Part shown: positions 1,317-41,906 of the stretch, one piece after another
How the letters are laid out: each line of letters starts with the position of its first letter
How positions within the stretch are numbered: the first letter of the stretch is position 1
IMG/VR virus record: IMGVR_UViG_3300036799_000043
Coordinates: 47,055 to 111,054 of that record
Source: a virus
DNA length: 64,000 nt
Direction: 5' to 3' (one strand)
Translations under genes and position numbers: made by a program
The notes under the pieces: model-generated
Database searches by the model: none
What the model was told of the DNA's origin: nothing
The model's input: the letters and a program-made list of their open reading frames with translations, nothing else

Positions 1317-1345
1317 TTGCGCTGCGATATGCAGTGCTGTATAGT
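1317..1345 (+). promoter_or_regulatory. Repeated phage promoter/operator copy P1
   Basis: TTGCGC-17-TATAGT, spacer ends GCAGTGCTG; ATG 7 nt downstream. Confidence 0.85.
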
Positions 1346-1352
1346 GAGAGCA

Positions 1353-1577
1353 ATGAACACGACGACAGAGATCAAGCGCACGACACTCACCGCTACAGCC
1401 GCAGCCAAGCTGCACTGCTCGCAGACCCACCGCTGCACCGACAGCGTTGTGGTCGTGCTGAGCTACCAGTTCGCAGACGGCGCTCGGCTCAACCACTACC
1501 CACTGTGCGAGTCGCATCAGGGCGACTATTCGCGCGACAGCCAAACGCTGCGCGCAATCAAGGAGATCGTGCGATGA
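1353..1577 (+). CDS. Hypothetical Cys/His microprotein, leaderless (MNTTTE...)
   Basis: ATG 7 nt after -10 of P1; stop overlaps next gene. Confidence 0.7.
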   Translation: MNTTTEIKRTTLTATAAAKLHCSQTHRCTDSVVVVLSYQFADGARLNHYPLCESHQGDYSRDSQTLRAIKEIVR

Positions 1578-2071
1578 GCAGCGTTCTGCCAGCGATGCCG
1601 AAGAACGCGATCCAGCGCAGCAAGCTCGAACTCGACGCAGAGAAAGCAGCGCGCAAGTCGCTTGAGGACAGCATCACCAATCTGCGTTCGCTGATGCACA
1701 GCGACAAGTTCCGCGAGAACCCGTACGTCAACATCGTCGACATCCTGACGTGGGCAGAGCAAGCGATGAGTGCTGCGAGCGACGCCGAGTCTGCTTCGTA
1801 CGCAGTCGGCCGTATGCGCCAAGCTGTGTACAGCAACATCACTACAGCGCTCGACACGAACGGCGCCAACGCTCTGTACAAAGTCGACGCGTTCGCTCTC
1901 GAAGGACCTGAGACGCGCACTGTGTACGTGCTCAAGTCAGATGTCGAATTCGCGCTTGAAGTGCTGCGCGCTGATGGCATCTACTATCGCGCCGAACTGA
2001 GCGAATGGGAAGATGCACGACCGTGGGAGCGCGAAGGTCGCTGGCTCTACGCACAGTCGGTGACGCTGTGA
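1574..2071 (+). CDS. Hypothetical protein
   Basis: SD AAGGAG, ATGA overlap with upstream gene. Confidence 0.7.
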   Translation: MSSVLPAMPKNAIQRSKLELDAEKAARKSLEDSITNLRSLMHSDKFRENPYVNIVDILTWAEQAMSAASDAESASYAVGRMRQAVYSNITTALDTNGANALYKVDAFALEGPETRTVYVLKSDVEFALEVLRADGIYYRAELSEWEDARPWEREGRWLYAQSVTL

Positions 2072-2734
2072 AGCACGAACAGACCGAATACACGCTCGGG
2101 CCTGCGCCAACCTTTTACCATCACGCGCACTGCTCGTGCGGCTGGAGAAGTAAGGGCAGAGGTCACGTTGAGACTGTGCGGCGAGACTGGGAGCAGCACG
2201 AGCGAGAATCCAACTTGCCGAAGCTCGTCGAAGGCGAGTGCTCGTGGTGCTGTGAGCGGTCTGCGCGTTGCGTCGAATTCTTCTCCGGACTGTCGTACGC
2301 GCGACTGTGCCCAGACTGCATCAAGCGCATGCACAAGCGTAACAACCAGCTTGCGACAGCAGATCGTCACGTGCGCTATGCGGAGAGGGCTGGACATGCC
2401 AGATAGGGTGCAGTCAATGGAAGGCATGATGCTCGAAGCTGAGCAGCACGCGGCGCGCAACGAAGCCGACAAACAGGCCCTTGAGCGCATTGTCGAGAAC
2501 CGACGACAAGCGTTGCAGATCGCAGAGACGAAGTGGACGGAAGTGCGCGATGGTCTTGTGTTGCAGCTACAGTGCTGCACAGGACCTCGTGACAACTTCG
2601 CGCTGCCGAGTGTCGTTGCGCACAGCGCAGACAAGCTCAATCAGTGGTTGACAGCCTACGATCAAGCGAGTGAGGAATACTACGCCGCACGACGGGCGCT
2701 GCGCTGCTTGAGAGGGGAGCCAGAAGATAGCTAA
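2068..2734 (+). other. Two overlapping hypothetical CDS (2068-2406 Cys-rich; 2396-2734 coiled-coil)
   Basis: Translationally coupled ORFs. Confidence 0.55.
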
Positions 2735-2749
2735 CGTTAGACTGTCAAC

Positions 2750-3247
2750 GTGAGCGAACCAGCAGCGAGCGACGTTGTAGAGGCGTTTTGCGACGCGCTC
2801 GCTATTGCGGTCAGATACGCCACAAGAGCGCAGCGAATATATCTGCGCATCAATGGGAAGCGAGGAACCGGAACAGTGGTAGATATTCCTGATGATCGCG
2901 CATTCGGCCTTGTCGTCGACTTTGAAGACAAATTTGGCGAACAGGCGCGCGAGCCGGGCGCAGTCACTTTCAGCAGCGACCAGACTGATCTCGTCACGAT
3001 CACGCCGAACACGATGCTTGACGCCGACGGCAATGTCGTGCCCGCAACTGACGACATGCACGCGACTGCTATGGCGAACGCCGGCAGCGGCAGCTTCAAT
3101 CTGTTCGCGAGCAGCGGCACGCTGAATCTCGAAACGCCCGAGGCGTGCAACATCGTCGCTGGTTCTGCGGTGACCGGCCACGTGGTCGTCGAATTGACGC
3201 AACCCGCTGCGTCGTCGGCACATCACCGCACTCACAAGGACAAGTAG
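2750..3247 (+). CDS. Hypothetical beta-rich (possibly Ig-like) protein
   Basis: ORF followed by hairpin AGGCGTCGCAG-TTTAT-CTGCGGCGCCT. Confidence 0.6.
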   Translation: MSEPAASDVVEAFCDALAIAVRYATRAQRIYLRINGKRGTGTVVDIPDDRAFGLVVDFEDKFGEQAREPGAVTFSSDQTDLVTITPNTMLDADGNVVPATDDMHATAMANAGSGSFNLFASSGTLNLETPEACNIVAGSAVTGHVVVELTQPAASSAHHRTHKDK

Positions 3248-4367: not shown

Positions 4368-4395
4368 CGCCACGCTGATGCTGCTCTGATACGAG

Positions 4396-5085: not shown

Positions 5086-5114
5086 TTGTCTAAGCAGCCG
5101 TGATTACACATACT
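5086..5114 (+). promoter_or_regulatory. Sigma70-type promoter without operator palindrome
   Basis: TTGTCT-17-CATACT upstream of leader with ACACGAC-TAAGGAG. Confidence 0.6.
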
Positions 5115-5684: not shown

Positions 5685-5714
5685 TTGCGCTCGCAGTATG
5701 CAGCACTGTATATT
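5685..5714 (+). promoter_or_regulatory. Promoter/operator copy P2
   Basis: TTGCGC-18-TATATT; AGTATGCAGCACTGTATATT. Confidence 0.85.
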
Positions 5715-5723: not shown

Positions 5724-6566
5724 ATGAACACGACGACGCGAACAGATGTCCACTCACCGAAGAACCTCATCACTGAGGACTACGAACTCGTCAACTGCTT
5801 CGACAACCAGACTGCCTGGGCAATCACTGAGTACGGCTTGACGATCTCGCGCAAGCTGCACGCTGATGACGAGCTTGGTCGCGGTGCGAACCAGTGCCAC
5901 CACTGCGGCGCTCACATTCGCTACTTTGCAGTGCTTGAGCACACGCCGACCGGCAAGTACATCGTTGCTGGCGAGACCTGCGTCGACAATCGATTCTCGC
6001 GAGCGACCGCTGACTTCCAGCGCCTCCGCAAGCAAGCTGAGCTAGATCGCGCGCAGCAGCGCATCAAGCGAGCGCTCGAACAGTTCGCCGCTGACAACAG
6101 CGATGTTGCGTTTCTCGCGACTGGCGAGCTTCCGGAGAGCATCTCGTGGAACAACTTCGTGAGTGACATCTCGCGCAAGCTGCGCATGTACGGCGAGATC
6201 AGCACTCGTCAACTGACCGCCGTTCGCGACGCCATCCAGCGCGCCGAGCAGCAGAACGCAGAGCGCGCCGCTCGCAAAGCAGCCGAAGCGACGCAGATCA
6301 CGAGCGATGTCGTTGAGGGCCGCATCGAGATCAGCGGCGAAGTGCTCTCGACCAAGTGGATCGAAAGCCAGTTCGGTAGCTCACTCAAGATGCTCGTACG
6401 CGACGCTCGTGGCTTCAAAGTCTTCGGCAGTGTCCCGAGCAGCATCAGCGCGAATCGTGGCGACCGCGTTCGCTTCGTCGCGACAGTCGAGCGCTCGCGC
6501 GACGACTCGCAGTTTGGATTCTTCTCTCGCCCGAGCAAAGCAGCGGTCATTACGACCGCTGCGTAG
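5724..6566 (+). CDS. Hypothetical protein, N-terminal Zn-binding motif and C-terminal OB-fold-like region; leaderless MNTTT start
   Basis: CHHCG...GETC; GEVLSTKW..SQFGSSLKMLV..GDRVRFVATV. Confidence 0.75.
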   Translation: MNTTTRTDVHSPKNLITEDYELVNCFDNQTAWAITEYGLTISRKLHADDELGRGANQCHHCGAHIRYFAVLEHTPTGKYIVAGETCVDNRFSRATADFQRLRKQAELDRAQQRIKRALEQFAADNSDVAFLATGELPESISWNNFVSDISRKLRMYGEISTRQLTAVRDAIQRAEQQNAERAARKAAEATQITSDVVEGRIEISGEVLSTKWIESQFGSSLKMLVRDARGFKVFGSVPSSISANRGDRVRFVATVERSRDDSQFGFFSRPSKAAVITTAA

Positions 6567-6567
6567 C

Positions 6568-6596
6568 TTGCACGTGAGTTAGCAGTAGAGTAGACT
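6568..6596 (+). promoter_or_regulatory. Sigma70-type promoter
   Basis: TTGCAC-17-TAGACT, followed by ACACACGACAAGGAG leader. Confidence 0.65.
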
Positions 6597-13703: not shown

Positions 13704-13732
13704 TTGCGCTCAGCAATACAGTGCCGTATAGT
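13704..13732 (+). promoter_or_regulatory. Promoter/operator copy P3
   Basis: TTGCGC-17-TATAGT; ATG at 13742. Confidence 0.8.
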
Positions 13733-14214
13733 GTCAGAGACATGAGCAAGCGACGACAGGGAACGAACGCAGCGCTTGAGAGCTATGACGAGACGTTGAG
13801 CGCGAGCTACATCGCCAGGCAGCAAGCACGCGAGAGCGAAGCGCAACTCCTTGAAAGTCGCGCGCTCGAAGCCGACCAGAACGCGAGCGAGTGGGAGCAC
13901 GACGACGACGACTGCGGATGTCACTGCATGTACGTTCGTATGGCCGAGAGCTACCGCGAGCGCGCTAGCACGACACGAAGGGGATAACGCCATGACAGCA
14001 CGACAGATTGACACGACGCGCATGATCGCCAGCTTCGACTCGATCAGCAAGAAGAACGGCCAGAGCGCTCGACACTACGTCGCACTCGGATTCAGAGCGG
14101 TGCAAGCGTGCGACGGTCGCAGCATCAGCGCCGTCTCTGTCAGCGCGACAGACGAGCGCTACAAGACATGCGTACGCTGCGCGAAGCTTGCTGCGTCACA
14201 AACTGGCGAAACAC

Positions 14215-14243
14215 TTGCGTCGACGTAAACAGCGCTGTATATT
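14215..14243 (+). promoter_or_regulatory. Promoter/operator copy P4
   Basis: TTGCGT-17-TATATT, ACAGCGCTGT core; GTCACA upstream. Confidence 0.85.
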
Positions 14244-15086
14244 GTGAGAGTCATGAACACACGACGAAAGCCCCGCTGGGTGATGTATGCAGAGAATCAG
14301 GAAGCTCGCAAAGCAGCAGCGCGCGACGCGCTCAAGAACCCCATGACCGTAATCAACGGCCGCGTGCGCAGCAGCAGCGAGTACGCATCCGCAGTCGAGC
14401 GCTGCGCCGCCGCCATCACCGCTTTCTACTCGCGCGATCTGACAGACGAGCAATTTACTGCAGAGTTTCGCGCTCGTGGTGGACGCACGAAGATTCGATG
14501 CGAGATCGTCTCGGAGACGCTCGCTGGCGAGACAGTCTTCGGCAGCGAACTTGCTGGAAACATTCCGATGGAATGCTTTATCTCGCTCGAAGACATGCAG
14601 CTAGTCGAGATACGCGCGCTCCGATCGCGCGAATGAGGAGAGTCATGAACAACACGACACCAGAGTACCTGTTGAGTGGTTGCGAGCGCGATATCTGCTA
14701 CGGCGGACACGAGGACGCCGTCAAGCAGCGCAAGAGCGACGCGCGCTGGTTCATCACAATGGGCCACCCAGGCTTCAATAGCGCGACAAACAACGGGCGT
14801 GGCTACAGAACATACGCGACCGCTTACGCTGCGCTGGATCGATACGGAGCCCGCAAGTGATTGCTCGTGCCGAGACGCGTGAGTATCGAGCCGCGTACAC
14901 ACGCGGCTGGAGCTACTCGCAGCGCGAGACAGCGACTCTCGATCACGTCGACTCGCAGTACGGCCGAGATCCGCGTTACAACGCGATTCTTGACGGCTAC
15001 CTAGATGCCGCTGCGGGACGTGAGAAGTACCACATGCTGCAGTGCTCGCTTGGCAAGATCGAGTGCAGCGAGCACGACTGGTGAAA

Positions 15087-15146
15087 TGTAACAGAAGTCA
15101 CAGAGTGGCGTAATCGCTTGCGCTTTAGTATGCAGCGCTGTATATT
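15087..15146 (+). promoter_or_regulatory. Promoter/operator copy P5 with upstream TGTAA-N6-TCACA site
   Basis: TTGCGC(15118)-17-TATATT; AGTATGCAGCGCTGTATATT. Confidence 0.88.
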
Positions 15147-15152: not shown

Positions 15153-15800
15153 ATGAACACGATGAAGACACCGCTGCAACAGCAACAGTTCGCGACCGCC
15201 CTCAAAGTGCAGACGACAGAGGCAATCAAGCAGTACACAATCATCCAAGCGCGATTGATTCAACTGGGTTTTGGCGAATATTGCGGGCGCTGCGGTGGCA
15301 GTGGCCACTACTCGTTCAATCTGCGCGATGGAACGATCTGCTTCGGATGCGCCGGCAGCGGCTGGGTCGCTCGCAAGCTCACCGCGAAGCTGCTCGCTGA
15401 GATCACTGCGATTGGCGACGACAAGCTCGCTGCAGCTATCGAGGAGATCACCGAGCGCACGCGACTGCGCAAAGCAGCGACAAATGCAGCCAAGCGCGTA
15501 CTCGACACGTGGAGCGCGACTGACGTTAGCAAAGCATACAAGTGGACGAATGCGTACAAGTCGAGCCACACGTACAGCGAGCGGGACGAGTACATCGCTG
15601 ACACGTTCAATAAGCCGATGCACGATCTCTACAAAGCAGTCGAGCAGGAGAGCGCGCAAGTCGCGTGGATGAGCCAGCGACTCGCGACGCGCGATCCCGA
15701 ACTGCTCGCAGCGCAGCGCACGCTCGTCGAGCACGCTGACGCCGCAGTCGTGTCGATCAACGCCCTTGCAGAGCAGCTACGCAGCTTTCTCGCTGCGTAG
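15153..15800 (+). CDS. Hypothetical protein with DnaJ-type CxxCxGxG zinc finger; leaderless
   Basis: CGRCGGSG...CFGCAGSG. Confidence 0.75.
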   Translation: MNTMKTPLQQQQFATALKVQTTEAIKQYTIIQARLIQLGFGEYCGRCGGSGHYSFNLRDGTICFGCAGSGWVARKLTAKLLAEITAIGDDKLAAAIEEITERTRLRKAATNAAKRVLDTWSATDVSKAYKWTNAYKSSHTYSERDEYIADTFNKPMHDLYKAVEQESAQVAWMSQRLATRDPELLAAQRTLVEHADAAVVSINALAEQLRSFLAA

Positions 15801-15803: not shown

Positions 15804-15833
15804 TTGCGCATTGCACACTCAGCGCTGTATAGT
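15804..15833 (+). promoter_or_regulatory. Promoter/operator copy P6
   Basis: TTGCGC-18-TATAGT, CAGCGCTG core. Confidence 0.8.
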
Positions 15834-17311: not shown

Positions 17312-17340
17312 TTGCGCTCGAATACGCAGTGCTGTATAGT
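17312..17340 (+). promoter_or_regulatory. Promoter/operator copy P7
   Basis: TTGCGC-17-TATAGT; ATG at 17349. Confidence 0.85.
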
Positions 17341-18454
17341 GAGAAGCAATGAACACGACGACGAGCGCAACAGTCACGATCAAGGGCACGACATACGACA
17401 TTCTGACAAGCGACACAGTAGAGACGCATCGCGCAGCGAATCGCCCGAATCTCGCCAGCGTGCTTGAGCATCGCGGGATTTTACGGGACATGGCGATTGT
17501 TCGACAGAACGGATCGCTCGTGTATCACGTCTACGAATTTGCCAACGTGCGATTCTCGCGTGTGACGAGCCAGTTCTTTCACGTCACGCCTGCCGAAAAA
17601 GCAGAGATGCAGGCGAAGCTGTCAGAGGTGCTGTCATGATCGTCGACTACAGCACAGTCGCACGCGAGACGCGTGCCAGCGTCGCTGAGAGTGACGCACT
17701 GCTCGCGCGACTGCGACGCAGTGAAGACTTGATTATCGGCCGCTCTGATGCGGAGATCCGTGCTGCTCGTATCGTCGAGTTACGCCAAGAGTGCGCGCGA
17801 CATGCTGAGCTTGAGTCGATGCTCGCTCGCTGGTCGCGCACGGTTCGGGAGATGCCACGACGATGAGCGACGAGAATACGAAGCCAACCATTGCTGAGTG
17901 CTGCGAGCTACGCGAGTGCTGTCCGTGTTGCCCAAACGGCTACTGCGAAGACGAGACGGCGACTGCTGACGACTGTCACCGACTGCAGAGCGAGACTGAT
18001 CTGTACGGCGAGTGCTGCGACTGTTGCAAGCCATGACGATACTACAAGGACGCACGCTCGTCGAGCTACGCAGAGATCACGTCGAGATCGCGCTTATCTG
18101 GCTGCGCGAGGCGCGAGATCAGCGCTCGACGCTGACTGGTCGACAGCACGCGTATCTACTCGCGAAAGCAGCGTGGGCGCGTCGCTCAGCACTTGCTGTC
18201 ACACAGACGATAGAGATGGTGAGACGTGAGCACTCAGAGTCACGTTGACGAATTCGAGCGCATCGCGCGCAACTACACGCGTCGTATGAAAAACGACGCC
18301 AGACGCCGCTACGCCGTTGCCTACGCGACTGCGCTGATCGCTACAGACCTACTCGTCGACGACGTGCAGGCGCCGTCCTGTGACTATCTGAGCGCGTGTC
18401 AGCAGCAGGGAGTCCAAGCGATGCTCGACGACGTAGCAAAGCGCGTGCTGGCAA

Positions 18455-18514
18455 AGTAACAGAAGTCACAAAGACGTGGATACTCTTGTGTCTCTGTCTA
18501 CAGCGCTGCATACT
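18455..18514 (+). promoter_or_regulatory. Promoter/operator copy P8 with upstream AGTAA-N6-TCACA
   Basis: TTGTGT(18486)-17-CATACT; TACAGCGCTGCA core. Confidence 0.82.
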
Positions 18515-19663
18515 ATGAGAGTCATGAGCACTTACGTTTCACTCACCGAGCGCGCAATCGCAGCGCACATCGCTTGGATCGATGCCGTCAACGACGCGAA
18601 CACTCAGCGCGTAAGCAATCACGCTGACGCAATGCTGCTGATCGAGATCGCGCGAGACGAGTGGAAAGCAGCGATGAGCGAGCAAGACGAGCAGATCGCG
18701 AGTGGCGAGCTTGTAGTCGATACGCAAACGTTCGCACAGCGCAAAGCAGAGCAAAGCGCTCGCAACGCTGCACAGCAGATCATCGCGCGACAGTCAGTCG
18801 CGTAAGAAAGAGAGCACACGCGTGAGCACACGACGCGAAACGACTTTAGAGACATGTCACTGCGGTGCGAGCTTCGACCGCAGCGACCATTGCCCAGAGT
18901 GCTACTGCGAGCAATTCGAGGCATACTGTGAGCACGTACACGTGCCAGAAAGCGGACGCATGAACACGACGACAGAGCACAACCACTTCATGTCCAGCTA
19001 CGACACGATCATCGACTCGCTCGACAGTGAGTACCGTTGCGACTGCGACGACAACATCGTCGGTGGCCCGCGCGAGCACTCAGGCGAGCGCTTCGTCGAG
19101 CACATGCGTCGAGAGGACGGTCAGTGCAACCTGGCGCTCGTGTGTGCGGCGCACCTGCCGTTTTCTGTCGTCTTCGTCTCGCGTGAGATAGCCGACATCG
19201 AGAGCATCGAGCTTGAGTCGCTGACTGCAGAGCGCGAGCTTGAACTGCGAGCGCAGCATGCCAACGACACCGCCGCTGACTGACTTGCTCAAGCCGACTC
19301 GGCTCAAGCTGCGCGTGCTCAGTCTCGCCATAGCCGCAATCGCTCTGTACGGGCTCGCACAGCGTGACCCGCAGGACGTAGCTCTACTGAGCGCGTGTCT
19401 GATCGGCTTCGCGCTGTCACCGCTGTCTGTGCGGCGAGAGGTGCTGTATGACGTTGAGCACATCGTCGTCAAAGAGCCACGTGCGCACAAAACTGCGCAG
19501 CGTGCAGAGATCGTCGAAGACGAAGTAGACGCGATAGACGAGCGCGAGCTAGCGACAACGCTGCTCAAGAACAACCCGAAGCTCGTTAACAAAGACTTGG
19601 CGCTCGTGATCGCGCGACGCATGATCGCTGATGGAAGTGTCATGTCACAAAATGGCAAAATAC

Positions 19664-19692
19664 TTGCATCGCAGTAAGCAGCGCTGTATAGT
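19664..19692 (+). promoter_or_regulatory. Promoter/operator copy P9
   Basis: TTGCAT-17-TATAGT; ATG at 19700. Confidence 0.85.
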
Positions 19693-20425: not shown

Positions 20426-20454
20426 TTGCGCTCTAGTATGCAGCGCTGTATATT
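20426..20454 (+). promoter_or_regulatory. Promoter/operator copy P10
   Basis: TTGCGC-17-TATATT; AGTATGCAGCGCTGTATATT; ATG at 20461. Confidence 0.88.
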
Positions 20455-21644
20455 TAGTACATGAGCAAGACAGTTTCAGCCACGACAGTCGCACGACTCG
20501 CAGAGCACAGCGCGATTCGCACCACGGGTGCTTTCGTTCATCAGATTTACGGTGGCCGTGGATCGATCAACGGTCAGACCAACTGCGGCCTGCGCAATGG
20601 CCGAAGCTCGCGCCGCGCGCTCGTCAACCTCGCTGAGGTGAGCGTCGACAAGCTCTGTCACAAGTGCTTCCAAGTCGAGCGAATCACGCGCGAAGCGGGC
20701 GAATAGCCCGCTCAACACACGAAGGGAAACAAGAATCATGAGCACGCTCAGCACCGGCTATCAGCAGTACGTCACAGTCGACAACTGCTCAGACATTCGC
20801 AACTGTGTGTACTGTGGCAATTACAGTGAGCCACTCAAGGACAATAGTCGCGGGCAGGTCGTCTGTCGCGACTTCGAGAACTGCGTTTGGAATCGAGTCG
20901 ACAACGGCGAGATCGATTCAGATCGCGCTTGGAAATTGATCGGGAGGAAGTAGATGCAACTCGACCACGTGCAGATCAGCGTCGCGCGCGTGCTGCAGAC
21001 AGATGCGGAGATAACGCTGCTCAACGCTCGCAGCCAAGAGCTATGCGAAGCCGATAGCAGGCTGAGCAGCGTACGCAGCGTCGAGATCGCTGCCGCCGAG
21101 CTACTCGCACGTTACCAACGCGAGCAAGACGAGCTAGACAAGTTCATGCGTCAGTTTCGTCTCGTGCCACCAACGCTTCCCGCGGATATTCTGATCGAGC
21201 GACTCGTGCGGCGTCTACAGGAACTCGACGAAGTAGAGAGCTTCGCGAGCTACCTCGTCAGCATGAGCGGCAGCCGCACGCTGATCGAAGACGCAGAGCA
21301 GATCCAGGACCTGTTGAATCGGCATAGACTCGCGCGCACAGTGTCGCCTAGCCGCCGTCAGCGACGACTCAGACGTGTCGTGCATACGTCTGAGTGCTCG
21401 ATCATTCCGTGCCTCTGCTGATGCGGTGATCGTCGGCAATAGAGCTATTGGCATGCTGACGTTCGAGCAGCAGTGTGAAGCCGAACTAGCGCAACAGTCC
21501 TCAGACCCTCCAGAGAACTGGCACAGAGCTAGCGGTGAGATGTTGTGCAGTTGTCAGCGTGAGTACTGGCGTCACGCTCGACATTGGCCACACATCTGGC
21601 TACATGCGTTGTGCGATGGGAGCTACGTAAAGCTCTAAGCCTGA

Positions 21645-21728: not shown

Positions 21729-23774
21729 TCAGTTCGCGATCAGATCGACCTCAGTCTCGACCTCGTGCTGCCACTTCGTGAGTGCCTTACGTCGATGCGC
21801 GTGCCAGAGCTTTGCATTTTCTCCAGGAGCTTCCCAGCGGCAGTCGCGCTCGACATTGACACAGCGTGGGTTTTCGCACATGTGCTCGACTGACAGTACC
21901 CGAGCTTTCATGAGCATCGCGACTTCGTTGAGATCGAGACCTTCCTTGACTGCGAGCAGCAGCGCGTAGACGAGCCATTGACGCCCCATATACGTACAGC
22001 GTGGACGACCGTTGCTGCCCTCCTGACTGAGTGAGTAGCTTGTCTCTGTACAGCCGTTGATACCGTACGGCCAGACGTGTCGTTTCCAGATCGCTAGTAG
22101 CTGCTCTGCGTCTCGTTGATCCGCACGTAGTCGACTACCTGTGATCCACTCTGGCATCGCTACAGGACCCGCTACAGGTAGCTTGTGTTCGACGATGGAT
22201 AGCGTCGCTTCGTCCTCTTCCAGGAACTTCTCCGCGTCTGCATCAAAAACCTCTGCATCCAACTCATCGCTGTACTGTTGCAGCGGTGCGAGTGCAGCCC
22301 GCTCTTGTGGTGCAGCGGCTTCGTCGTCGTCTAAGCCGCCCTCTATTCTCGGCGCTACTCTGACGTGCTCTCTGTGTACAGCAGCGCGAGTGATGTACGG
22401 CGCGAGGGATACGGCTTGCACGCCGGGTCTGCCTGCGACTAAGTAACCCTCTAACTGATCGAGCGTCACGTTGAGTACAAGCTCGCTCGCGCGCACTGCG
22501 AGTCCGGGTAAGTCTTTGAGAATATCCTCGCACCATTGACGACTTTGACGCGCGAGTGGACCGAGTCCCATGATGAGTGAAACCGCAGCGTTCGCTTGCA
22601 GCACAGTGCCCAAGTCTTGCGGGTCTTGCGACAGATACAGAATGCGCCAACCGCGGGCGCGCATCGAGCGAAAAAGGTCGTCCATCTCTGTGCGTCGAGT
22701 CTTGAGAAACGCCGCTTCCTCGAGGACGAGAATGACATCGTGCACGACTTCGGCTGCACGCTTGCACTGCACAATACCCGCGACACCGATCAACGGTGTC
22801 AGCTTTGGATTCGTGTAGCTGTTGCCGCTAAGGTGAATGATGACGGGCTCGTCACGGCTAAGCTCTGACACGAGATCGAAGTCATTGCCGAGTGATTCTG
22901 AGCACACACGCGACAGCGACTTGAGTCGGCGCAGCCACGTCTTTCTCGCGAGCGCTGGGACTTCTTCGTCCTCTTCCATGATGCGCTGACAGCGAGCGAT
23001 CATGTCTGGCCACGTGCGCTGTCTGTTCGCGCTGTCAATCTCCTCAAGCGCTTGAGAGATAGCGTCGCTCATCAACTGCGAGAAGAAGCCGGTACTTCCG
23101 GGTGACTCCGGCCAGATCGTCGGGATTGCTTCGGCGATCATCTCGCGATCACCGTCGAGCACGTTCCAGCCCAATCCCATACGAATGCGCCAGCGCAGCA
23201 CGCGCATGCCCATGTCTTCGGCTTCGTTCGTTGCTTCCTCAATCGGGTCGCTGCGATCAAAGCTCAGCACAACGACTTTGCGGCGCTTCCAGAAGCCAAG
23301 CGAGCGCATGATCCGCATCTTGAGTCCGATAGTTGGCTGCAAAATCATCGACACGACTGCGGTGCTCTTGCCGCTACCAGAGCCACCGACGATGAGTGCG
23401 TGCGTCTGATCGAGATACGTCATGACGCCGCCGACGTACCAGTACCAGGGCTGCACGAAAAAGTTACGCCGCCACGATGCGAAGCGTCGATGCCAGGGTT
23501 GTCGTCTGACGCGTATTGGGCGAACTTCCTTGGCGAGTTTCGATGTCACTGCAAAAGACATTCGCACTCGATTGATGACGAGCGCGAGCATGAGCCACAG
23601 CACGCCGAAGACGATGACGAAGCCAGCCCATGCGTCGACGCCAAGGTCTGCGAGATGCGTCAGGTCTTGATTCTGCCACGCGTCTTTGAGCGCGTCGACT
23701 GTCGGGCTTAGCTGCGACAGCGTGTCTGGTAGCTGTCGCAGCCCAGGCGCGATCTGATCGAGCCAGTCGCGCAT
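21729..23774 (-). CDS. VirD4/TraD-like type IV coupling ATPase with C-terminal HNH/His-Me-finger-like domain
   Basis: N-terminal TM; Walker A GGSGSGKS; Walker B ILVLEEA; RARGWRILYLSQDPQDL; C-terminal VEHMCENPRCVN..EN. Confidence 0.8.
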   Translation of the reverse strand: MRDWLDQIAPGLRQLPDTLSQLSPTVDALKDAWQNQDLTHLADLGVDAWAGFVIVFGVLWLMLALVINRVRMSFAVTSKLAKEVRPIRVRRQPWHRRFASWRRNFFVQPWYWYVGGVMTYLDQTHALIVGGSGSGKSTAVVSMILQPTIGLKMRIMRSLGFWKRRKVVVLSFDRSDPIEEATNEAEDMGMRVLRWRIRMGLGWNVLDGDREMIAEAIPTIWPESPGSTGFFSQLMSDAISQALEEIDSANRQRTWPDMIARCQRIMEEDEEVPALARKTWLRRLKSLSRVCSESLGNDFDLVSELSRDEPVIIHLSGNSYTNPKLTPLIGVAGIVQCKRAAEVVHDVILVLEEAAFLKTRRTEMDDLFRSMRARGWRILYLSQDPQDLGTVLQANAAVSLIMGLGPLARQSRQWCEDILKDLPGLAVRASELVLNVTLDQLEGYLVAGRPGVQAVSLAPYITRAAVHREHVRVAPRIEGGLDDDEAAAPQERAALAPLQQYSDELDAEVFDADAEKFLEEDEATLSIVEHKLPVAGPVAMPEWITGSRLRADQRDAEQLLAIWKRHVWPYGINGCTETSYSLSQEGSNGRPRCTYMGRQWLVYALLLAVKEGLDLNEVAMLMKARVLSVEHMCENPRCVNVERDCRWEAPGENAKLWHAHRRKALTKWQHEVETEVDLIAN

Positions 23775-29548: not shown

Positions 29549-29731
29549 GTGACGAGTGGCGATGGACTGCTGACCGTGCATGAGGTTGCTCAGCGCTTGA
29601 GAACGTCAGACGAGACAATCAGACGTTGGCTACGTAAGCGGCGTATACGCGGGACGAAGTTGTCGGCCAGAGGTAGATCAGGCTGGCGTGTGACAGAAAG
29701 CGAGCTACGACGAGTGCTAAGCTCTGACTGA
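29549..29731 (+). CDS. Excisionase-like (HTH_17/MerR-type) DNA-binding protein
   Basis: LLTVHEVAQRLRTSDETIRRWLRKRRIRGTK..GWRV; GTG 6 nt after extended -10 TG-T-TACTCT. Confidence 0.82.
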   Translation: MTSGDGLLTVHEVAQRLRTSDETIRRWLRKRRIRGTKLSARGRSGWRVTESELRRVLSSD

Positions 29732-29860: not shown

Positions 29861-29910
29861 GTCACAAAAGTGGCGAAAGTATTGCGCTCTAGTATTCAGT
29901 CGTGCATACT
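29861..29910 (+). promoter_or_regulatory. Promoter/operator copy P11
   Basis: GTCACA, TTGCGC(29882)-17-CATACT; ATG at 29920. Confidence 0.85.
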
Positions 29911-30295: not shown

Positions 30296-30356
30296 CGTAA
30301 CAGATGTCACAACACTGGCTAAATGCTTGCGATTGCGCTCTACAGTGCTGTATATT
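30296..30356 (+). promoter_or_regulatory. Promoter/operator copy P12 with upstream CGTAA-N6-TCACA
   Basis: TTGCGA(30327)-18-TATATT; ATG at 30366. Confidence 0.82.
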
Positions 30357-31090: not shown

Positions 31091-31110
31091 CAGCTACAGT
31101 CGTGTATACT
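31091..31110 (+). promoter_or_regulatory. Degenerate promoter/operator copy P13
   Basis: TACAGTCGTGTATACT; ATG 7 nt downstream; poor -35. Confidence 0.6.
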
Positions 31111-31285
31111 GAGCGCGATGACAACTCTCGATCAGCGCAGATGTGCTGTGTGCTCGCGAAAGCTCGCAGCGACACACGACGCCAATGAGCCCTTGTGCGC
31201 GACGTGCGCCGAGCTATCGCCAGAGTTTGTCGCGATGAGCGCAAAGCTTGCTGCTCAGCGTGGCATTCCATTTGACGACGAGTAA

Positions 31286-33389: not shown

Positions 33390-33418
33390 TTGTGCTCCAG
33401 TATTCAGTGCTGTATACT
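33390..33418 (+). promoter_or_regulatory. Promoter/operator copy P14
   Basis: TTGTGC-17-TATACT; AGTATTCAGTGCTGTATACT 20-bp palindrome. Confidence 0.85.
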
Positions 33419-33427: not shown

Positions 33428-33661
33428 ATGAACAACACGAGCGAACGTAACTGCGGCAAGTGCAACGGTAGCGGAACCTTTCTTCACTTCGGTGCATGCT
33501 TCGAGTGCAACGGAACGGGAGTCTCGAAGGCTCGCCGCGTCGCTACTCTTAGCCCGAGCCGTCTTGCTTCGCTAGACGATCTCGAAGCGCGCGAGCAACT
33601 CCGATACGAACTGCTCGCAGACGCCGCCTACCGTGCATACCGTGCCCGACGGGCACGGTAG
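33428..33661 (+). CDS. CxxCxGxG zinc-finger microprotein, leaderless
   Basis: CGKCNGSG...CFECNGTG. Confidence 0.7.
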   Translation: MNNTSERNCGKCNGSGTFLHFGACFECNGTGVSKARRVATLSPSRLASLDDLEAREQLRYELLADAAYRAYRARRAR

Positions 33662-33667: not shown

Positions 33668-33940
33668 ATGCCGCGTCCAATCGATACGCCGTTTGGCGAA
33701 CACTTACGCAAATGGCGCAATGATCGAGCGCTGTCGTCAGACAAGCTCGCTCAACTGCTCGGCGTCCACCCGCGTGCAATCGCCAGACTCGAGGAATTGA
33801 CCATTGAAACCGCCGAGACGCAAGAGATCGAGCAGAAATGTCGCGAGCTACAGCAGAAAATGCACGAGCCGACGCTGCTCAGCGTGTCTGCAGCGCGCTC
33901 GATCTGGGAGCTAGAACGCATGAAATTGACACGCGTGTAA
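33668..33940 (+). CDS. XRE-family HTH transcriptional regulator
   Basis: FGEHLRKWRNDRALSSDKLAQLLGVHPRAIARLE. Confidence 0.82.
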   Translation: MPRPIDTPFGEHLRKWRNDRALSSDKLAQLLGVHPRAIARLEELTIETAETQEIEQKCRELQQKMHEPTLLSVSAARSIWELERMKLTRV

Positions 33941-34339: not shown

Positions 34340-34367
34340 TTCGCAAGCGCACGTAGTGCTGTATACT
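34340..34367 (+). promoter_or_regulatory. Degenerate promoter/operator copy P15
   Basis: AGTGCTGTATACT then CACGACGAAGGAG leader. Confidence 0.6.
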
Positions 34368-34393: not shown

Positions 34394-36750
34394 ATGGACT
34401 ATCCCAACGACATGGAGCTACGTGATGGTGACTCGCTTGAGTTTACCGTCCAGATCAGTGACGGACAGCCTGTCACGCTACAGAGCATGCGCAAGCTCGT
34501 GCGGCGGGTTCGCACCGGGCAGACACCGCTGTTTGCCACGACTGACAGCGCACCAGTTATGACTGAGCTACACAAGCTCTGGGGTACTGCTCGACGCCCA
34601 GCAAGGCCACCTAAATGACACAACTCAAGCCATCTGACATTGAGGCGTGGCCCTGATGATCGTCACGTGTCACCTCGCACGAGACGAGATTGGCGACACA
34701 CTCGTCGACACTGTCGACGTGGTGAGCAACTCCATGCGCGGCAGCTTGTCGCCGCGTACTGTCGAGCGCTGGTTGCTCGCACAGCACTACGATGGTGGGC
34801 GATACGAGACGATGGTTTGCATCGGTAGCAATGAGCCATCGTTGTATCGCACAAGGACATGGCAGGCCGCGCTGTGCTGTCACCGATGGTGGATGCGATA
34901 CGCAGAGCAGCGACGCATCAATGTGATATGGCCTGCAACTTACATGGCGTTGTCAAAATGACGTTCGGCGGTGAGCACTCGACGCACCGCACGTTCTATC
35001 TGCGGCGCTATCCAGACCACTGGACGGTTGAGAACGTCAATGATCCTGTCGCACCGCTCAGCGACAATGACCAGTTTCGACTGATCGAGCAAGCACTGCA
35101 TGCCTGGCCTGCAGAGACGTGGATCGCAGTGCAAGTGCCGTGGAGGCTAAACCCGCGCATTGCACCCTGGAAGTCAGTCACGATGTCACTGCGAGGCAGG
35201 GAAGGCTGGCGCGTCGAGCGACTATATGACACTGGCGCAGAGGTCCAACCGAGTGACAGGCAGTTTGAGCTTGTCGTCGCATCGGTCATTATCATGCCAG
35301 AACACTACGACAGATCGCTCAACATCAACGAGCCAATGCGCGTGTTGACGCAGAGCATGCGTCTCCTGTCAGAGACGCTCGACGTGCTCAGCGCGCACAC
35401 GTCGACGCGCGGTGTGGCGGAAGCGGTGGTGCTGCGATGACAGCCGTAAGCTGCATAGATATGGCGCACGTCCCATGCGACGAGTGCGGCGGCTTTCACC
35501 CGCCAATGTGGAGTCACAAGTTTGCGCCGTGTTGCAACCTAGACGCGCAAGCTCGTCAGCACTCGCGTGATCGCGCCATAGCCGTTCTGGAGACACAGAC
35601 AGCGGGCGATACGCCGCAGACTGAGCGCAACATGACACTGCGCGAGCGCATACGTGTAGCAGAGGCAACGCGCAACGTTGACCGTGTCGGGCGTGTCGAG
35701 ATACGTCAGACGCAGGACGGCACTGTTGTTGAGTCGCTATGGCTCAACGGCGTCGATCTGTTCAAGTGGTTCGGCACTGCCTGTCTGCACGATCTGACAG
35801 TGCACGTTCGACTGGAGGTCGTCGACGAATGAGCCGCTTTGAGTACGACGACTACGACTCGACGATCACCCAAGAAATGTGGCAGCACAACGTCGATCTC
35901 GCATTGCGCGGTCGCAAAGGCCAGAAAGCACTACGTGAGCTACTGCTGGCGCTCGACGCTGTACCTGGTCACCGCCTGATACGTGACTATCTCGTCAATC
36001 CCGAGCAGGGCGAAGCGTGTGCAGTTGGCGCATGGCTTGCGTACAAACGCATTGCTAGTGGTCAGACAACCGACTGGAATGACACGCTGCGCGCGCTGTA
36101 TCAGCAGTATGGCGAGACAGAGGGCTGGGAAACCGGTGACATCGGCCGCAGAGAGCTTCGCGTCACAGGCACGCTCGCGCAGCACATTGCATATCGCAAC
36201 GACGACTATTACCGCTCAGCGACGACGCCCGAGCAGCTATGGCAAGCGACGTACGACTGGGTACGGTCGCAGATCGTCGACTGATGCACCGCTTCAAGCG
36301 CGACACCGCTGACACGTGCGAGTGTGGTCAGCCACCGTGCGTTGCGCAGCACGAGGACAATTTCAGATTGCCGCACGTGCTCTTTGGCTATTCTGCAAGC
36401 CTGTTCGATACGCGCTATCTCGTCGTGCGCTGCAAGTGTGGCGCAGAGGCGCGTTACGACACTCAGTGGGGTACGGTGATTGCTGGTGCTACAGGCAACT
36501 GGCGATCTGTCGAGACAGCACTGCAGGAAGCCTCATGACACAGCCACTTGACGCTCGCACGTGCCCGAAGTGCAAGCGGCCGAAGTCGCCTACTGCAGTT
36601 GCGGGTAAGTGCTATCACTGCTCGACAGGCAAGAGCATTCGACTTGACGCTGTGACGCGCGTCGAGCAGCCTGTCAGTGTGATTCGCTTACAAGACAGAC
36701 TGCGCATGCGCGCGAAGCAAGACAGCGCTGAGCGCCTTCCTGCGACGTAA
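34394..36750 (+). other. Small hypothetical CDS cluster (34394-34618, 34647-34961, 34958-35440, 35437-35832, 35829-36284, 36284-36538, 36535-36750)
   Basis: Coupled ORFs. Confidence 0.55.
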
Positions 36751-37377: not shown

Positions 37378-37722
37378 ATGTTCCAGAAGTTCTCGACGTA
37401 CGTCAGCGCTGTCACTGGTAGCCCGTACGCGTTCGTTGCTTCTGTCGCAATCGTCGTGCTCTGGGCACTGTCTGGACCGTTGTTTCACTTCTCGGATACG
37501 TGGCAGCTTGTTATCAACACGGGCACGACGGTTATCACGTTCCTGATGGTGTTCTTGATTCAGAACAGCCAGAATCGTGACGTACGTGCATTACACTTGA
37601 AGCTCGACGAATTGCTACACGCGCAGCCACAAGCACAGGACATCTTTATGCACATCGAGACCGCTGACGCTGCACATCTCGACGAGCTTGAGGCGGCACT
37701 CGCTCGACGACGTAATGCCTGA
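37378..37722 (+). CDS. Low-affinity iron permease (Fet4-like) family protein
   Basis: GP.FHFSDTWQLVINTGTTVITFLMVFLIQNSQNRD..ALHLKLDEL. Confidence 0.9.
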   Translation: MFQKFSTYVSAVTGSPYAFVASVAIVVLWALSGPLFHFSDTWQLVINTGTTVITFLMVFLIQNSQNRDVRALHLKLDELLHAQPQAQDIFMHIETADAAHLDELEAALARRRNA

Positions 37723-38081: not shown

Positions 38082-39731
38082 ATGGTAGTCGAGCAGTACG
38101 CGCCCGATGATGGGGGTTTCGACCGACTCTCGCTGCTCGAACAGCTTGAAGCTGACTACGCGTGGTGGCTCTGGCGACTGTTCCCGCAGTACTTCACAGA
38201 CGAATCTGGCAACGTCATTCCAATGGCAGACCATCACCACGACGCGTGGGAGTGGTTCTGGGAAATGCCAGATGCACGCCCGCGTCCGCTGATCTTCTTG
38301 CTGCCGCGTGGTGGCGGAAAGTCGACGACTGTTGAGCTTGGCGTGGTGTCGCTCGGCTGTCGCAACAAACGCAACTACGTGCTGTACGTGTCAGCGACGC
38401 AAGAGCAAGCTGACGATCACGTCACGAGCATTGGCGCGATGCTCGAATCACGCCGTCTAGAGATCGCGTACCCACAGATGTCAGATCGCTATGTCAACAA
38501 GTACGGCTCATCGAGAGGTTGGCGGCGAGATCGTCTGTGGACGAAAACGGGCTTTGTAATCGATGCGCTCGGACTCGACACTGCGAGTCGTGGCGTAAAA
38601 CTCGAGGATCGACGCCCAGACGTGATCGTGTTCGACGACATCGATGAGGATGGAGATACCGACAAAGAAGTGCGCAAGAAGGTGCGCATCATCACTCGTC
38701 GCTTACTGCCTGCTGCTGCGTCAGGTGGTAACACCGCAATAATCTTCTGTCAGAACCTCGTGCATGAGCGTTCGATAGCTGCTCTGCTGTGCAACCGCCA
38801 CCCTGATCCCAAGGGTGCGCAGCTTGACGACTTTCTCGTTGACAGACGCGTGATTGGTCCGATACCTGCTGTGCGCGACGCGGACGTACGCTTTCAGAAT
38901 AACCACTTTGAGCTAATCGCTGGCGAAGCGACATGGGCCGGTCAGTCGATTGAGGTCAATCAACGTCTGATCGATACAGACGGCTACTCGTCGTGGAAGC
39001 AAGAGCGTCAGCACGACGTAGAACCACCCGCTGGCGGCATGTTCTCGCATCTCGACTTTGAGGCTATGACTGTCGAGATGGCTGACGTACCGCCACTCGT
39101 GCGTATCGTCGGTGCGCTCGATCCCGCGGTGACGAATACAGACGACAGTGACTCTATGGCGCTGCAATTCGACGGCATTGGTGTCGACGACTGCATCTAT
39201 CGTCTGTGGTCGTGGGAGCAGCGTTCGACACCTGAGACAGCGATGGAGCTAGGCCTGCGGCGCTGCGTTCACTTCGGCGCAGATGCGCTCATCATCGAGA
39301 CAGATCAGGGCGGTGATCTGTGGCTAGAGAAAGCACCAGAGACATGGCTGCATCTCATCGCGAAGTGTGACGGTCGCGAGACAGATCAAGACTTTGCACC
39401 GCACTCAACAGCAGACGCGTGTCCGTATCTCGTGCACATCACTGAGAACTCGATCTTTCCAAGCGTGATCGGTATGAAAGCTGGCTCGACGCAGATGCCA
39501 AAAGCGCACCGTGCGTCACTCATGCTGCAGGACTACGAACGCCCGAATCAGATACGTCACGTGCGCAGTGGCACACATCAGGTGCTACGTGCTGCGCTGA
39601 ATCGCTTTCCGAAAACGAAGCCCCTGGACCTGACCGATGCCTCATTCTGGGCATGGAACGAACTGCGCAATCCGTCTGTCGTGCCGAGCTTCGTGCTGCA
39701 AGCTGCAGTCAGCGGGTGGTCACCGCGCTGA
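38082..39731 (+). CDS. terL: Terminase large subunit
   Basis: LPRGGGKST Walker A, VIVFDDID Walker B, GALDPA nuclease motif, DLTDA. Confidence 0.92.
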   Translation: MVVEQYAPDDGGFDRLSLLEQLEADYAWWLWRLFPQYFTDESGNVIPMADHHHDAWEWFWEMPDARPRPLIFLLPRGGGKSTTVELGVVSLGCRNKRNYVLYVSATQEQADDHVTSIGAMLESRRLEIAYPQMSDRYVNKYGSSRGWRRDRLWTKTGFVIDALGLDTASRGVKLEDRRPDVIVFDDIDEDGDTDKEVRKKVRIITRRLLPAAASGGNTAIIFCQNLVHERSIAALLCNRHPDPKGAQLDDFLVDRRVIGPIPAVRDADVRFQNNHFELIAGEATWAGQSIEVNQRLIDTDGYSSWKQERQHDVEPPAGGMFSHLDFEAMTVEMADVPPLVRIVGALDPAVTNTDDSDSMALQFDGIGVDDCIYRLWSWEQRSTPETAMELGLRRCVHFGADALIIETDQGGDLWLEKAPETWLHLIAKCDGRETDQDFAPHSTADACPYLVHITENSIFPSVIGMKAGSTQMPKAHRASLMLQDYERPNQIRHVRSGTHQVLRAALNRFPKTKPLDLTDASFWAWNELRNPSVVPSFVLQAAVSGWSPR

Positions 39732-39793
39732 TATACTGCGCACGCGACTGGCCTTGTCCAGGTATCCCCTGGCAGATTCCGGCCGCTTAGGGG

Positions 39794-39832
39794 TCTTGAG
39801 CTTGCTGGGATCGCACGGCTCAAGACACCTTC
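39794..39832. terminator. Hairpin between convergent terL and minus-strand cassette
   Basis: GTCTTGAGC...GCTCAAGAC. Confidence 0.55.
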
Positions 39833-41846
39833 TTTGTGTAGACTCGACTCGCGATACGTGAATTGTGTGCGATGCACCTGTCACGTACTTCGCGCTCAGC
39901 TTGCATGTCTTGCTCTGTTTGCACGCGTAGAAATGGTCTGCCATTGACCCACTGCACGCGTACAGCACGCTTACCGTCGACAAGCACGTCAACCCAAGTG
40001 GCGCCACCGTATTGTTGCTCTGCTTCTGGCTCGTACTGCAGTGTGACGTTGGGCATGTTAGTTCCTTTCTGAGCGCGCATAGCGTAGGTGAGATAGCAGT
40101 ACGTCGTGCGTCTCATGCGGTGCTCGCGTCGAAGGCACGTACAGCGTGTCCTGACTGACGCATAGCGCCCGAGCACGCTCTGCTGACACAGATAGTGGTT
40201 GCCGACTGCGCAGTAGATACATTCCATTATGGTTTCTCATCTGCTGCGAAACACGCTCGACACAGTTGTTGTACGCCGTGTTTCTCAATCATCATTCGGT
40301 ACGCAGCTTTCACCACGTCGAGCATTGCATCGTTGGTCAGATCACTCGTCGATCCCTCACCATGCGCGATGTAATCAACTGTGATTGGTTGATCGCAACG
40401 CGTACAGTTTAGCCCGACTGCAACGTCAGATAAGCCAGCATTGTTCATACTGGCATCGCCCAGACTTTGTTGGGTTCAGCGGGGTTGTACGACGCAACAT
40501 CGAGACGCAGGTTCGAGCGCGTCAGCAACACTTCTCGCCAATCTTTTTTCTCGATCTCGTGAGTGCAGACGTACCAGTGTGTCGGGTCGCCGCCTGTGCG
40601 CGCGAGAATGACGTACCACTGACGCTTGATGTGCTGTTTACGTGCGAACTCTGGCCACGGCATTGCATTGACGTTGACAGTGAAGCGCACTGCGAGCTTG
40701 TCGAGACTCGGGTGAGTCCACTTCGCACCGCTCGTCGCGAGATCAGCCTGACGCGTCAACCACACGACATCCGGCCCTGCATGCTGCTTGAGCAGGTCGA
40801 CGTTACTGTCTGTCAGTGTGAGCTTTTGATCGTGCAAGATGTTCGGCAGATGCAGGACTGACGTGTAGTGGTAGAGCCTCACGTTGCCCACCGCTTTTGT
40901 TCGCTGACGATCTCAACGGCGATACGCATGCGCACCGCACGCTGCGAGCCATTGCCTTCTGAGAAGTAGGTGTACATGCTGCTGCGCCCTTGCTCGCGCT
41001 GCATGATCTCGACATCTTGCGGTAGCAAGTCGATAAACAATTCGCCGTTGATGTCTCTAACGCGCATTGGCGTTTCTCCCTTCAATGATGCACAGTGCTG
41101 GATCGATGTATTCGAGCATCTCTGCGTCTGCCCGAGGCAGCCAATTTTGAGCGTGCTGCGCGCAGTAGAACGCGCCTTCGCCGTTCAGCATGTTGTGTGC
41201 GCGCGACAGCACGCGATAGTCACCTCGTACGCCGCCGCACAGCTTGCAGGCATTGCCGACGAGTGCGCCACGTGCATTCGTGCTCGCGCGCGGTAGGTCG
41301 ATCTGCACGCGCGCGAAGTCCGCGTCCGTGTACACGATGCGCTGATCGGTGCGAGTCGGCAGAATGACGCTCATGCGCATGCCTCCAGTTCGTGTCGACG
41401 CATGTAGCCCCAGTTGCGTCGACGATCTCGTTCTGACTGCTGTCCCTTGCCGGTGCACTGATAGCAGATGCCCCACGTGCCCTTGCGTTCGTTGACGTAT
41501 TCGCCGCTACCGTCGCACTTGTCGCAATGCGTCCACGTCGATTGATCGCCGTCGAGCTTGCGTATCTCGTCGATTGTCTGCTCGATCTGTCGCTTGTCGT
41601 ACTTGAAGCTCGGCGAACGCATCGCCATATCGAACATGCTGTCCTGAATCTGGCGACGCTGCATCGCGTACGGGTCAGTCGGGTAGCTCATCGCTGGCCT
41701 CGCACGTGATTGGTGACGCCACGGCAAAATGCGCATTGATCTTTTGCGAAAGCTGCGATCACGCGTGGGGTGAGTGCATACAGTCGATGGCCGCATGCGT
41801 AACGCGGTCCTTCGGGTGGTCGAGTCTTCGGGCGGTTCTTGCTCAT
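39820..41846 (-). other. Minus-strand cassette of small genes between terL and portal (41688-41846, 41371-41691, 41057-41374, 40879-41067, 40445-40891, 40227-40448, 39820-40056)
   Basis: Coupled minus-strand ORFs downstream of promoter P16. Confidence 0.7.
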
Positions 41847-41877
41847 CTGCTTGCTCTCTCTCGCTCGTGTTGAACAC

Positions 41878-41906
41878 ACTATACAGCACTGCTTACAAGA
41901 GCGCAA
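41878..41906 (-). promoter_or_regulatory. Promoter/operator copy P16 (minus strand)
   Basis: TTGCGC-17-TATAGT with GCAGTGCTG core on the reverse strand. Confidence 0.85.

Follow-up and report, generated by a model that had tools for sequence, protein, structure and literature searches.

The 64,000-nucleotide stretch of viral DNA analysed here (the window; bases 47055-111054 of the 111,054-bp IMG/VR record IMGVR_UViG_3300036799_000043) contains a repeated promoter-like module, in which a sigma70-type -10 box is embedded in a short palindrome. About 25 copies of the module were found in the record, in front of small gene cassettes that appear to be expressed early. The feature is real and cleanly defined, and its layout is already known from other phages. 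We judge the chance to be somewhat better than even that the palindrome (the dyad) is the operator of a dimeric protein, which would close all early cassettes together as a timed shut-off during lytic growth.

The copies are far too numerous to be due to chance. The pattern TTGCGC-N16-19-YATABT has 9 exact matches, compared with 0.19 expected, and a 20-bp form of the dyad, with up to three mismatches, gives 21 strand-hits, compared with 0.02 expected. An earlier note on this DNA had proposed the consensus TTGCGC-17/18-YATABT, which is borne out by the first of these counts, made with a slightly wider spacing. The note had also listed 16 copies; a copy is present at every one of these coordinates, three of them (29882, 31091 and 34340) being degenerate. 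The genome-wide motif scan that it had suggested was carried out on the whole 111,054-bp record, with a 22-column position weight matrix (PWM) derived from 20 copies and a threshold of 20.2 bits, the best score obtained in 50 shuffles (mean 13.9). Approximately 25 sites lie at or above this threshold. Sixteen are inside the window and nine are to the left of it, at record coordinates 11005, 14786, 16839, 20372 and 21489 on the minus strand and 27855, 44586, 45148 and 46606 on the plus strand. All copies are intergenic or overlap the last bases of a gene, and all are oriented towards the next gene. They span 11-89 kb of the record, and the same scan places none within the structural module (record 89-111 kb and 0-10 kb). 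The cassettes that follow consist of small, mostly orphan genes, and the genes directly downstream of the copies are not paralogues of one another.

The module has the geometry of a host sigma-A/sigma-70-type promoter, with CTTGCGC, a spacer of 17-18 bp, and TATAGT, TATATT or CATACT. In 21 of the 25 aligned copies, a TTGnnn is positioned 17-18 bp from TATAGT, TATATT, CATACT or TAGACT. Neither sigma region 2 nor sigma region 4 was detected in the six frames of the record; a single-subunit RNA polymerase was likewise not detected in the six frames, using a search tool that had no positive control for this polymerase family. Two giant open reading frames (ORFs) look like lectin or fibre proteins. 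As no phage sigma factor or polymerase was found, the host holoenzyme is the default reading for the recognition of these putative promoters.

Alignment of the copies on the core shows an information content of 0.9-1.9 bits per position across CAGYGCTG, and of 1.6-2.2 bits at all but one position of the -10 hexamer. The TA located four and three bases to the left of the core carries 1.0-1.3 bits, while the rest of the left arm, and the interval from the -35 to this arm, have at most 0.4 bits per position. The conserved left TA is the mirror image of the one in TA-TA-GT, and TAnnCAGYRCTGnnTA is therefore the best notation for the element. It is centred near -16.5 and covers the -10 box, with the half-sites TAnnCAGY and RCTGnnTA about one helical turn apart. 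The outer arms have 3.0 of 6 complementary positions per site, compared with 1.36 ± 0.19 when the left arms are random (2000 trials, none above 2.08), and the matrix scores 0.489 against its own mirror image, compared with 0.242 ± 0.033 for other upstream hexamers. Variation within the core is also mirrored: the promoters contain CAGCGCTG eight times, CAGTGCTG eight times, CAGCACTG three times and CAGTACTG not at all, which is the pattern expected from two equivalent half-sites. The 16-bp dyad is present in 12 exact copies, and in 20 when one mismatch is allowed, all of them in intergenic regions of promoter type. Outside the modules, CAGCGCTG is found 17 times, with 15.6 expected genome-wide; the bare 8-mer is thus neither avoided elsewhere nor meaningful alone. 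The spacer had previously been described as a near-perfect 20-bp dyad. The dyad is real and its symmetry is significant, but it is narrower than was written, with weaker outer arms.

This conservation lies where RNA polymerase has no known need. Conservation of the core and the mirrored TA, but not of the stretch from the -35 to the arm, argues for selection on specific contacts and against recent duplication of the module. Recent duplication also fails to explain a conservation that is mirror-symmetric and is found in front of mutually unrelated genes.

A palindrome may also function as a nucleic-acid hairpin, in this case as a read-through attenuator, an RNase site or a recombination cruciform. 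An attenuator-type role is attributed to the stem-loops of the promoter-early stem-loop (PeSL) cassettes of other phages, and two of the 12 copies that were folded as RNA reach -8.3 kcal/mol with z < -2.5. The remaining 10 fold no better than their shuffles, no compensatory changes are seen and the dyad is not followed by a U-tract; terminators, where present, are separate and much stronger hairpins further upstream. A hairpin or attenuator was rejected on the folding result, and a function of this kind is extremely unlikely. The weak folding, together with a dyad found out of register with its -10 box at one site (see below), makes a protein operator the best reading of the palindrome. Some other known elements were also considered. 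An extended -10 (TGn) was rejected by eye, as the TG abuts the hexamer without a spacer base and the dyad-less promoters have no GCTG, and the LexA, CIRCE and NrdR boxes were dropped because they do not agree in the order or the spacing of the half-sites.

The dyad is missing from at least four other sigma70-like promoters of this genome. Three of them, all on the plus strand, had been named in the earlier note and were confirmed to be without it: 5086..5114 (TTGTCT-17-CATACT), 6568..6596 (TTGCAC-17-TAGACT, followed by ACACACGAC and a Shine-Dalgarno sequence) and 46287..46315 (TTGACG-17-CATACT), which is positioned ahead of the head and tail genes. The fourth is on the minus strand, near record 22.0 kb. 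The dyad-less promoters share the -35, -10 and ACACGAC features with the dyad copies. The promoter at 6568 heads a run of genes ending in those for a dCTP deaminase-like protein and NrdJ, with no further predicted promoter in the run. The replication genes are preceded, near record 22.33 kb, by a probable promoter (TTGCTA-17-TATGAT, leaderless ATG at 22360) in which TAgaCAGCGCTGctTT is placed 3 bp further upstream than usual, indicating that the dyad is separable from the -10 register. The surrounding region, at record 21.5-22.4 kb, is a divergent control region made up of the leftward dyad promoter at 21489, the leftward dyad-less promoter at about 22.0 kb and the rightward promoter with the shifted dyad.

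The PeSL cassette is the closest description of the module in the literature. The T4-type phages phi1 and RB49 carry some 50 early promoters that are sigma70-like and precede orphan genes (PMC2839356; PMC4122927), with an inverted repeat located in the stretch separating the -35 from the -10, or over the -10 (PMC2839356). The likeness includes the dozens of near-identical sigma70-like early promoters, their A/T-rich upstream part, the small orphan genes, the variable regions and the large myovirus genome, and some copies here also seem to combine the functions of terminator and promoter. The modules could accordingly be strong early promoters of the PeSL kind, in which the extra conserved bases reflect a long consensus or recombination between cassettes and no dedicated binder exists. 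Four copies with a terminator hairpin abutting the -35, orphan cassettes downstream, a dyad that is never separate from a -10 box and an early region that is not shared with the nearest relative, as in hyperplastic regions, are all in agreement with this. However, the PeSL repeat is a stem-loop terminator with G/C tracts, whereas the palindrome described here is loop-less and thermodynamically weak, being conserved in sequence and not in structure (in 10 of 12 copies the folding does not exceed that of shuffles). A stem-loop of that type is absent from the module itself, and a separate strong hairpin upstream is found in only 4 of 25 copies. PeSL genes have leaders with a Shine-Dalgarno sequence, while most of the genes here are leaderless; phi1 and RB49 are T4-type phages, while the searches made showed no T4-type kinship for the present phage. 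A further trait of the PeSL class is that recombination between the copies shuffles cassettes from one close relative to another. A long promoter consensus also does not account for conservation that is both position-specific and mirror-symmetric, for promoters of the same genome that look functional without the dyad, or for the one site at which the dyad is out of the -10 register. Promoters of the PeSL kind without a binder are therefore regarded as rather unlikely.

In the operator reading, which we prefer, a dimeric, sequence-specific DNA-binding protein would sit on the dyad and occlude the -10 box, turning the whole promoter class off together. A centre near -16.5, covering the -10, is a classical position for a repressor. 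The regulator would itself be made from one of the dyad promoters and would close all of them, shutting off the early genes on schedule during lytic growth by a negative feedback similar to that of Cro or of controller proteins. The dyad-less promoters, serving nucleotide metabolism and the head and tail genes, would stay open. The regulon under one repressor, as put forward in the earlier note, agrees with the sequence, with the repressor-type position of the dyad and with the presence of dyad-less promoters in the same genome; the binder and the repression themselves are predictions. If the operator reading is correct, about 25 promoters would be closed by one small protein through a 16-bp site, and the early programme of an uncultured phage lineage would become testable with synthetic DNA alone. 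The module would also provide a compact, portable part combining promoter, operator and leaderless start. Taken alone, the module is a fresh instance of an already known strategy.

The best guess for the regulator is a 90-residue XRE-like helix-turn-helix (HTH) protein encoded at 33668..33940 (+), which the earlier note had singled out. It is the only HTH_3-type match in the record, and its gene comes second after the copy at 33390, whose 20-bp dyad is among the three best. A comparison with the PHROG family 'transcriptional regulator' gives an E value of 6e-4, and the best sequence match in the PDB is C.BclI (E 0.086). A model predicted from the single sequence has five helices, and the top Foldseek matches are all XRE-type dimers (CapH, C.BclI, ClgR, HipB, P22 c2 and SinR), with E values of 0.014 or worse. 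The weak matches of this protein, in sequence and in fold, are thus all dimeric operator binders. The case for it is circumstantial, and it remains a reasonable guess. Controller (C) proteins, which act at the C-boxes of restriction-modification systems (PMC2632904), offer a parallel. They are small XRE-type dimers whose palindromic operator overlaps the promoter from which they are themselves expressed; the transcript is leaderless, and the feedback acts with a delay. C-boxes, however, consist of one or two sites at a single restriction-modification operon, whereas some 25 sites are present here and restriction-modification genes are not; the similarity of the XRE-like protein to C.BclI is also weak, by sequence (given above) as well as by fold (E 0.037). 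A second DNA-binding candidate is a small HTH_17 (excisionase/AlpA-like) protein at 29549..29731 (+). Members of the HTH_17 family usually bind direct repeats.

Several observations count against an operator bound by a dedicated repressor. A -10 box accompanies the dyad in every case, which means that the dyad may be part of an unusually long promoter, and only two outer positions in each arm are well conserved. The -35 sequence TTGCGC agrees with TTGACA at three of six positions, for which reason a generic scan with a strict sigma70 consensus does not call the copies. The gene for the large terminase is downstream of the last plus-strand copy, and the class may consequently not be purely early. 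Pattern scans of IMG/VR, JGI metagenomes and GTDB genomes, and BLAST against INPHARED, did not reveal the motif in any other sequence: the external scans returned single chance matches only, none of which scored with the PWM. With respect to the XRE-like protein, all family matches are below threshold (HTH_31, 24.4 bits with a cut-off of 27; HTH_3, 20.7 bits with a cut-off of 23), the mean predicted local distance difference test score (pLDDT) of the model is only 66, and no homologue was found among 5.8 billion proteins. Finally, an assignment of the host through the VirB4-like ATPase encoded in the record points to a mixture of Bacillota, Mycoplasmatota and Chloroflexota.

The module has further features that were absent from the earlier note, namely a leaderless start, a conserved (AC)ACACGACGA box, and an upstream GTCACA box or terminator hairpin. 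In 18 of the 25 copies an ATG is positioned 6-10 nt after the -10 box, a distance that fits the geometry of the host holoenzyme, for which a start about 7 nt behind the -10 is expected, and opens an ORF of 55-280 codons that has no Shine-Dalgarno sequence; the mRNAs are thus predicted to be leaderless or to have a leader of at most 3 nt. Behind the ATG the conserved sequence is ATGAACACGACGA, which yields a recurrent N-terminus, MNTT. The (AC)ACACGACGA box is located 7-20 nt after each -10 (for example at 1356-1368, 5727-5739 and 17352-17364), and is also found before many internal genes. In leaderless genes ACACGACGA falls inside codons 2-5, and in copies with a leader it is at the predicted 5' end, before the Shine-Dalgarno sequence. 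Its occurrence both in codons and in leaders identifies it as a nucleic-acid signal, at the level of RNA or DNA, and not a protein motif.

Upstream of the promoter, GTCACA is found at a fixed distance of 35-37 bp before the core in 11 of the 25 copies, four of which have an additional GTAACA 9 bp further up. In a twelfth copy (20441) a GTAACA-GTCACA pair is located about 21 bp further upstream. Boxes of this type are found at 14195-14200, 15088-15103, 18456-18471, 19644-19649, 29861-29866 and 30297-30312, among others. Four other copies instead carry a strong hairpin of terminator type (-20 to -26 kcal/mol), its T-run directly adjoining the -35.

The GTCACA box is in an activator-type position (about -55), and as a second conserved site in 11 of 25 copies it speaks for the possibility that the dyad is a positive element. 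A factor encoded or injected by the phage might recruit or retarget host RNA polymerase, offsetting a -35 that matches only half of TTGACA, and such a factor might have escaped recognition among the many unannotated early proteins. The dyad itself, centred at -16.5 over the -10, is nevertheless in the position of a repressor and not of a known activator. MerR-type activators need spacers of 19-20 bp, while the spacer here is 17-18 bp. A gene for a sigma-like factor or RNA polymerase was not found, and, unless the factor is injected, the promoters of early genes have to fire while phage proteins are still absent. We consider a positive role very unlikely.

The earlier note had interpreted the dyad as a distributed immunity or lysogeny switch, and this part of its proposal is not supported. 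No match to Phage_integrase, Resolvase, ParB_N or a ParA-type ATPase (AAA_31) was found in the six frames of the record, which is about 86% complete. Furthermore, the promoter of the head and tail operon is without the dyad, so a dyad-binding repressor would not silence it. A timed early shut-off in lytic growth is preferred to an immunity switch because no lysogeny genes were found. It may be noted that about 14% of the genome may be missing, and that the element carries conjugation genes.

Regulons in which one repressor acts at many sites are known from temperate phages. In the Cluster A mycobacteriophage L5 a single repressor acts at operators and stoperators (PMC9283540; PMC6550527). The likeness to L5 lies in one phage regulator that would act at over 20 short, conserved sites, distributed over the genome and oriented with transcription. 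The L5 sites, however, are asymmetric 13-bp sequences bound by a monomeric, two-domain repressor, many of them outside promoters, where they block elongation, and the phages are temperate; the site described here is a symmetric dyad that is always fused to a -10 box, in a record without detected lysogeny genes. In the Streptomyces phage phiC31, conserved inverted repeats that are bound by the c repressor are linked to similar early promoters. As in the present case, an inverted repeat in multiple copies is tied to a family of highly similar early promoters; phiC31, however, is temperate with an integrase, and its early promoters do not have a sigma70 consensus, while no sign of temperance is seen here. 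A c-gene homologue was not seen here either, although no search was aimed at one. With L5 and phiC31 as examples, the dyad could be an operator at which a lysogeny or immunity repressor acts; the XRE-like protein encoded at 33668 would then be a CI-like factor that silences the lytic cassettes in a prophage. The incompleteness of the record allows for missing lysogeny genes, and a mobile or plasmid-like way of life is hinted at by a type IV secretion operon and by the HTH_17 (excisionase-like) gene. Yet tyrosine integrase, serine recombinase, ParB and ParA-type ATPase are all missing from the six frames, the gene for the candidate follows a promoter that its product would close and has no visible second promoter for maintenance, and the head and tail operon would escape silencing. 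A repressor of this kind is improbable. It is decidedly improbable, too, that the dyad is the operator of a master regulator toggling a phage with a type IV secretion system, and without an integrase, between lytic growth and a silent, plasmid-like or conjugative state. Such a toggle, if true, would make the leaderless promoters an immunity regulon that spans the genome of a phage-conjugative hybrid with a monoderm host.

Individual copies in the window are described below, all on the plus strand unless stated. The copy at 1317..1345 (TTGCGC-17-TATAGT, core CAGTGCTG) is followed by a leaderless ATG at 1353 and a 74-codon ORF. Strong terminator hairpins precede the copies at 5685..5714 (TTGCGC-18-TATATT, core CAGCACTG; ATG 5724, 280 codons) and 13704..13732 (core CAGTGCCG; ATG 13742, 81 codons). 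The copy at 14215..14243 (TTGCGT-17-TATATT, core CAGCGCTG) has an upstream GTCACA box and leads to an ATG at 14253 (127 codons). The best PWM score, 32.3 bits, is shared by 15118..15146, with GTAACA-N3-GTCACA upstream and an ATG at 15153 (215 codons), and 20426..20454, with an ATG at 20461 (81 codons). At 15804..15833 a hairpin abuts the -35 and a short leader, ACACACGATG, is present. The ORF behind 17312..17340 (ATG 17349, 96 codons) begins with MNTTT. The copies at 18486..18514 (TTGTGT-17-CATACT), 19664..19692 (TTGCAT-17-TATAGT) and 30327..30356 (TTGCGA-18-TATATT) are followed by ATGs at 18524 (93 codons), 19700 (68 codons) and 30366 (72 codons), respectively. The dyad of 33390..33418 has 8 of 10 mirrored pairs; a 77-codon zinc-ribbon ORF (ATG 33428) and the XRE-like gene are found behind it.

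The degenerate copies differ in their cores. In 29882..29910 (-10 CATACT; ATG 29920, 126 codons) and 31091..31110 (TATACT; ATG 31118, 55 codons; terminator hairpin just upstream) the core is the non-palindromic CAGTCGTG, which replaces CAGYGCTG in three promoters, at 29897-29904, at 31097-31104 and at record ~42.4 kb. Promoters with this core may be a subclass under weaker or different regulation. A well-spaced TTG -35 is absent from 31091 and also from the weak copy at 34340..34367 (core TAGTGCTG, -10 TATACT, poor -35), which is followed by ACGACGAAGGAG and an ATG at 34394. The only minus-strand copy among the 16, at 41878..41906, is divergent from the portal gene (41925-43757) and has a leader of about 31 nt. 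It would drive a block of six small minus-strand genes that separates the portal gene from the large terminase gene (38082-39731).

The genes are those of a large myovirus of lytic style, and include some for nucleotide metabolism. The record is classed as linear in IMG/VR, and its completeness is the CheckV estimate. It encodes a portal, a prohead protease or scaffold, a capsid protein, a 490-residue protein of unknown family and a 1037-residue protein of the size of a tape measure, of which the capsid protein alone has a Pfam match. Nucleotide metabolism is represented by NrdJ, the dCTP deaminase-like protein and ThyX, and replication and recombination by a primase-helicase and an Erf-like protein. 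A conjugation ATPase of monoderm type (VirB4-like) is also encoded, and most of the small proteins have no match at all. This uncultured 111-kb myovirus is probably virulent, with a host of monoderm type.

An auxiliary gene that is unusual in a phage lies directly before the large terminase gene, at 37378-37722 (+): its 114-residue product strongly matches the family of low-affinity iron permeases (PF04120, E 1.8e-47). Several early proteins that are first in their cassettes contain CxxC zinc-ribbon or DnaJ-type CxxCxGxG motifs (33428-33661; 41371-41691, minus strand; 15153-15800; 31118-31285), and many of the unannotated gaps resemble small Cys-rich ORFs. A search of the window for Rfam RNA families gave no match.

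No close relative was found in INPHARED or in the other collections searched. The nearest IMG/VR contigs, by identity of the portal protein, are G001 (58%) and G002 (39%); they have only structural genes in common with the record, and its early region is not shared with the nearest relative. The motif of the window is absent from both. An unrelated IMG/VR contig of 71% GC (L007:4320-4375) has TATAGT, 7 nt and ATGAACACGACG, preceded by the palindrome CTTGTGC-N6-GCACAAG; this single match may be due to chance. G001, which is 65.6 kb long, has a promoter-like module of its own in 9 copies (TTAACA, ~17 bp, TGTGATTTAAT), in which, unlike in the window phage, the spacer is variable; this contrast is a further point in favour of a separate protein site in the window phage. 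Its layout is GTTAACAC, about 17 variable bases, TGTGATTTAAT, a leader of about 30 nt with GGAAGCGAGA, and ATG. In G002, a complete IMG/VR genome of 69,487 bp, 32 copies of the invariant palindrome GTCTGGCGCGCCAGAC are distributed across the whole genome, usually with a T-rich sequence before and an A-rich sequence after (often TTTGTCTGGCGCGCCAGACAAA), and many of them are just upstream of a Shine-Dalgarno sequence and start codon. As it is not followed by a T-run, GTCTGGCGCGCCAGAC is not a plain terminator, and may represent a further site for protein binding that is spread over a genome of this loose lineage.

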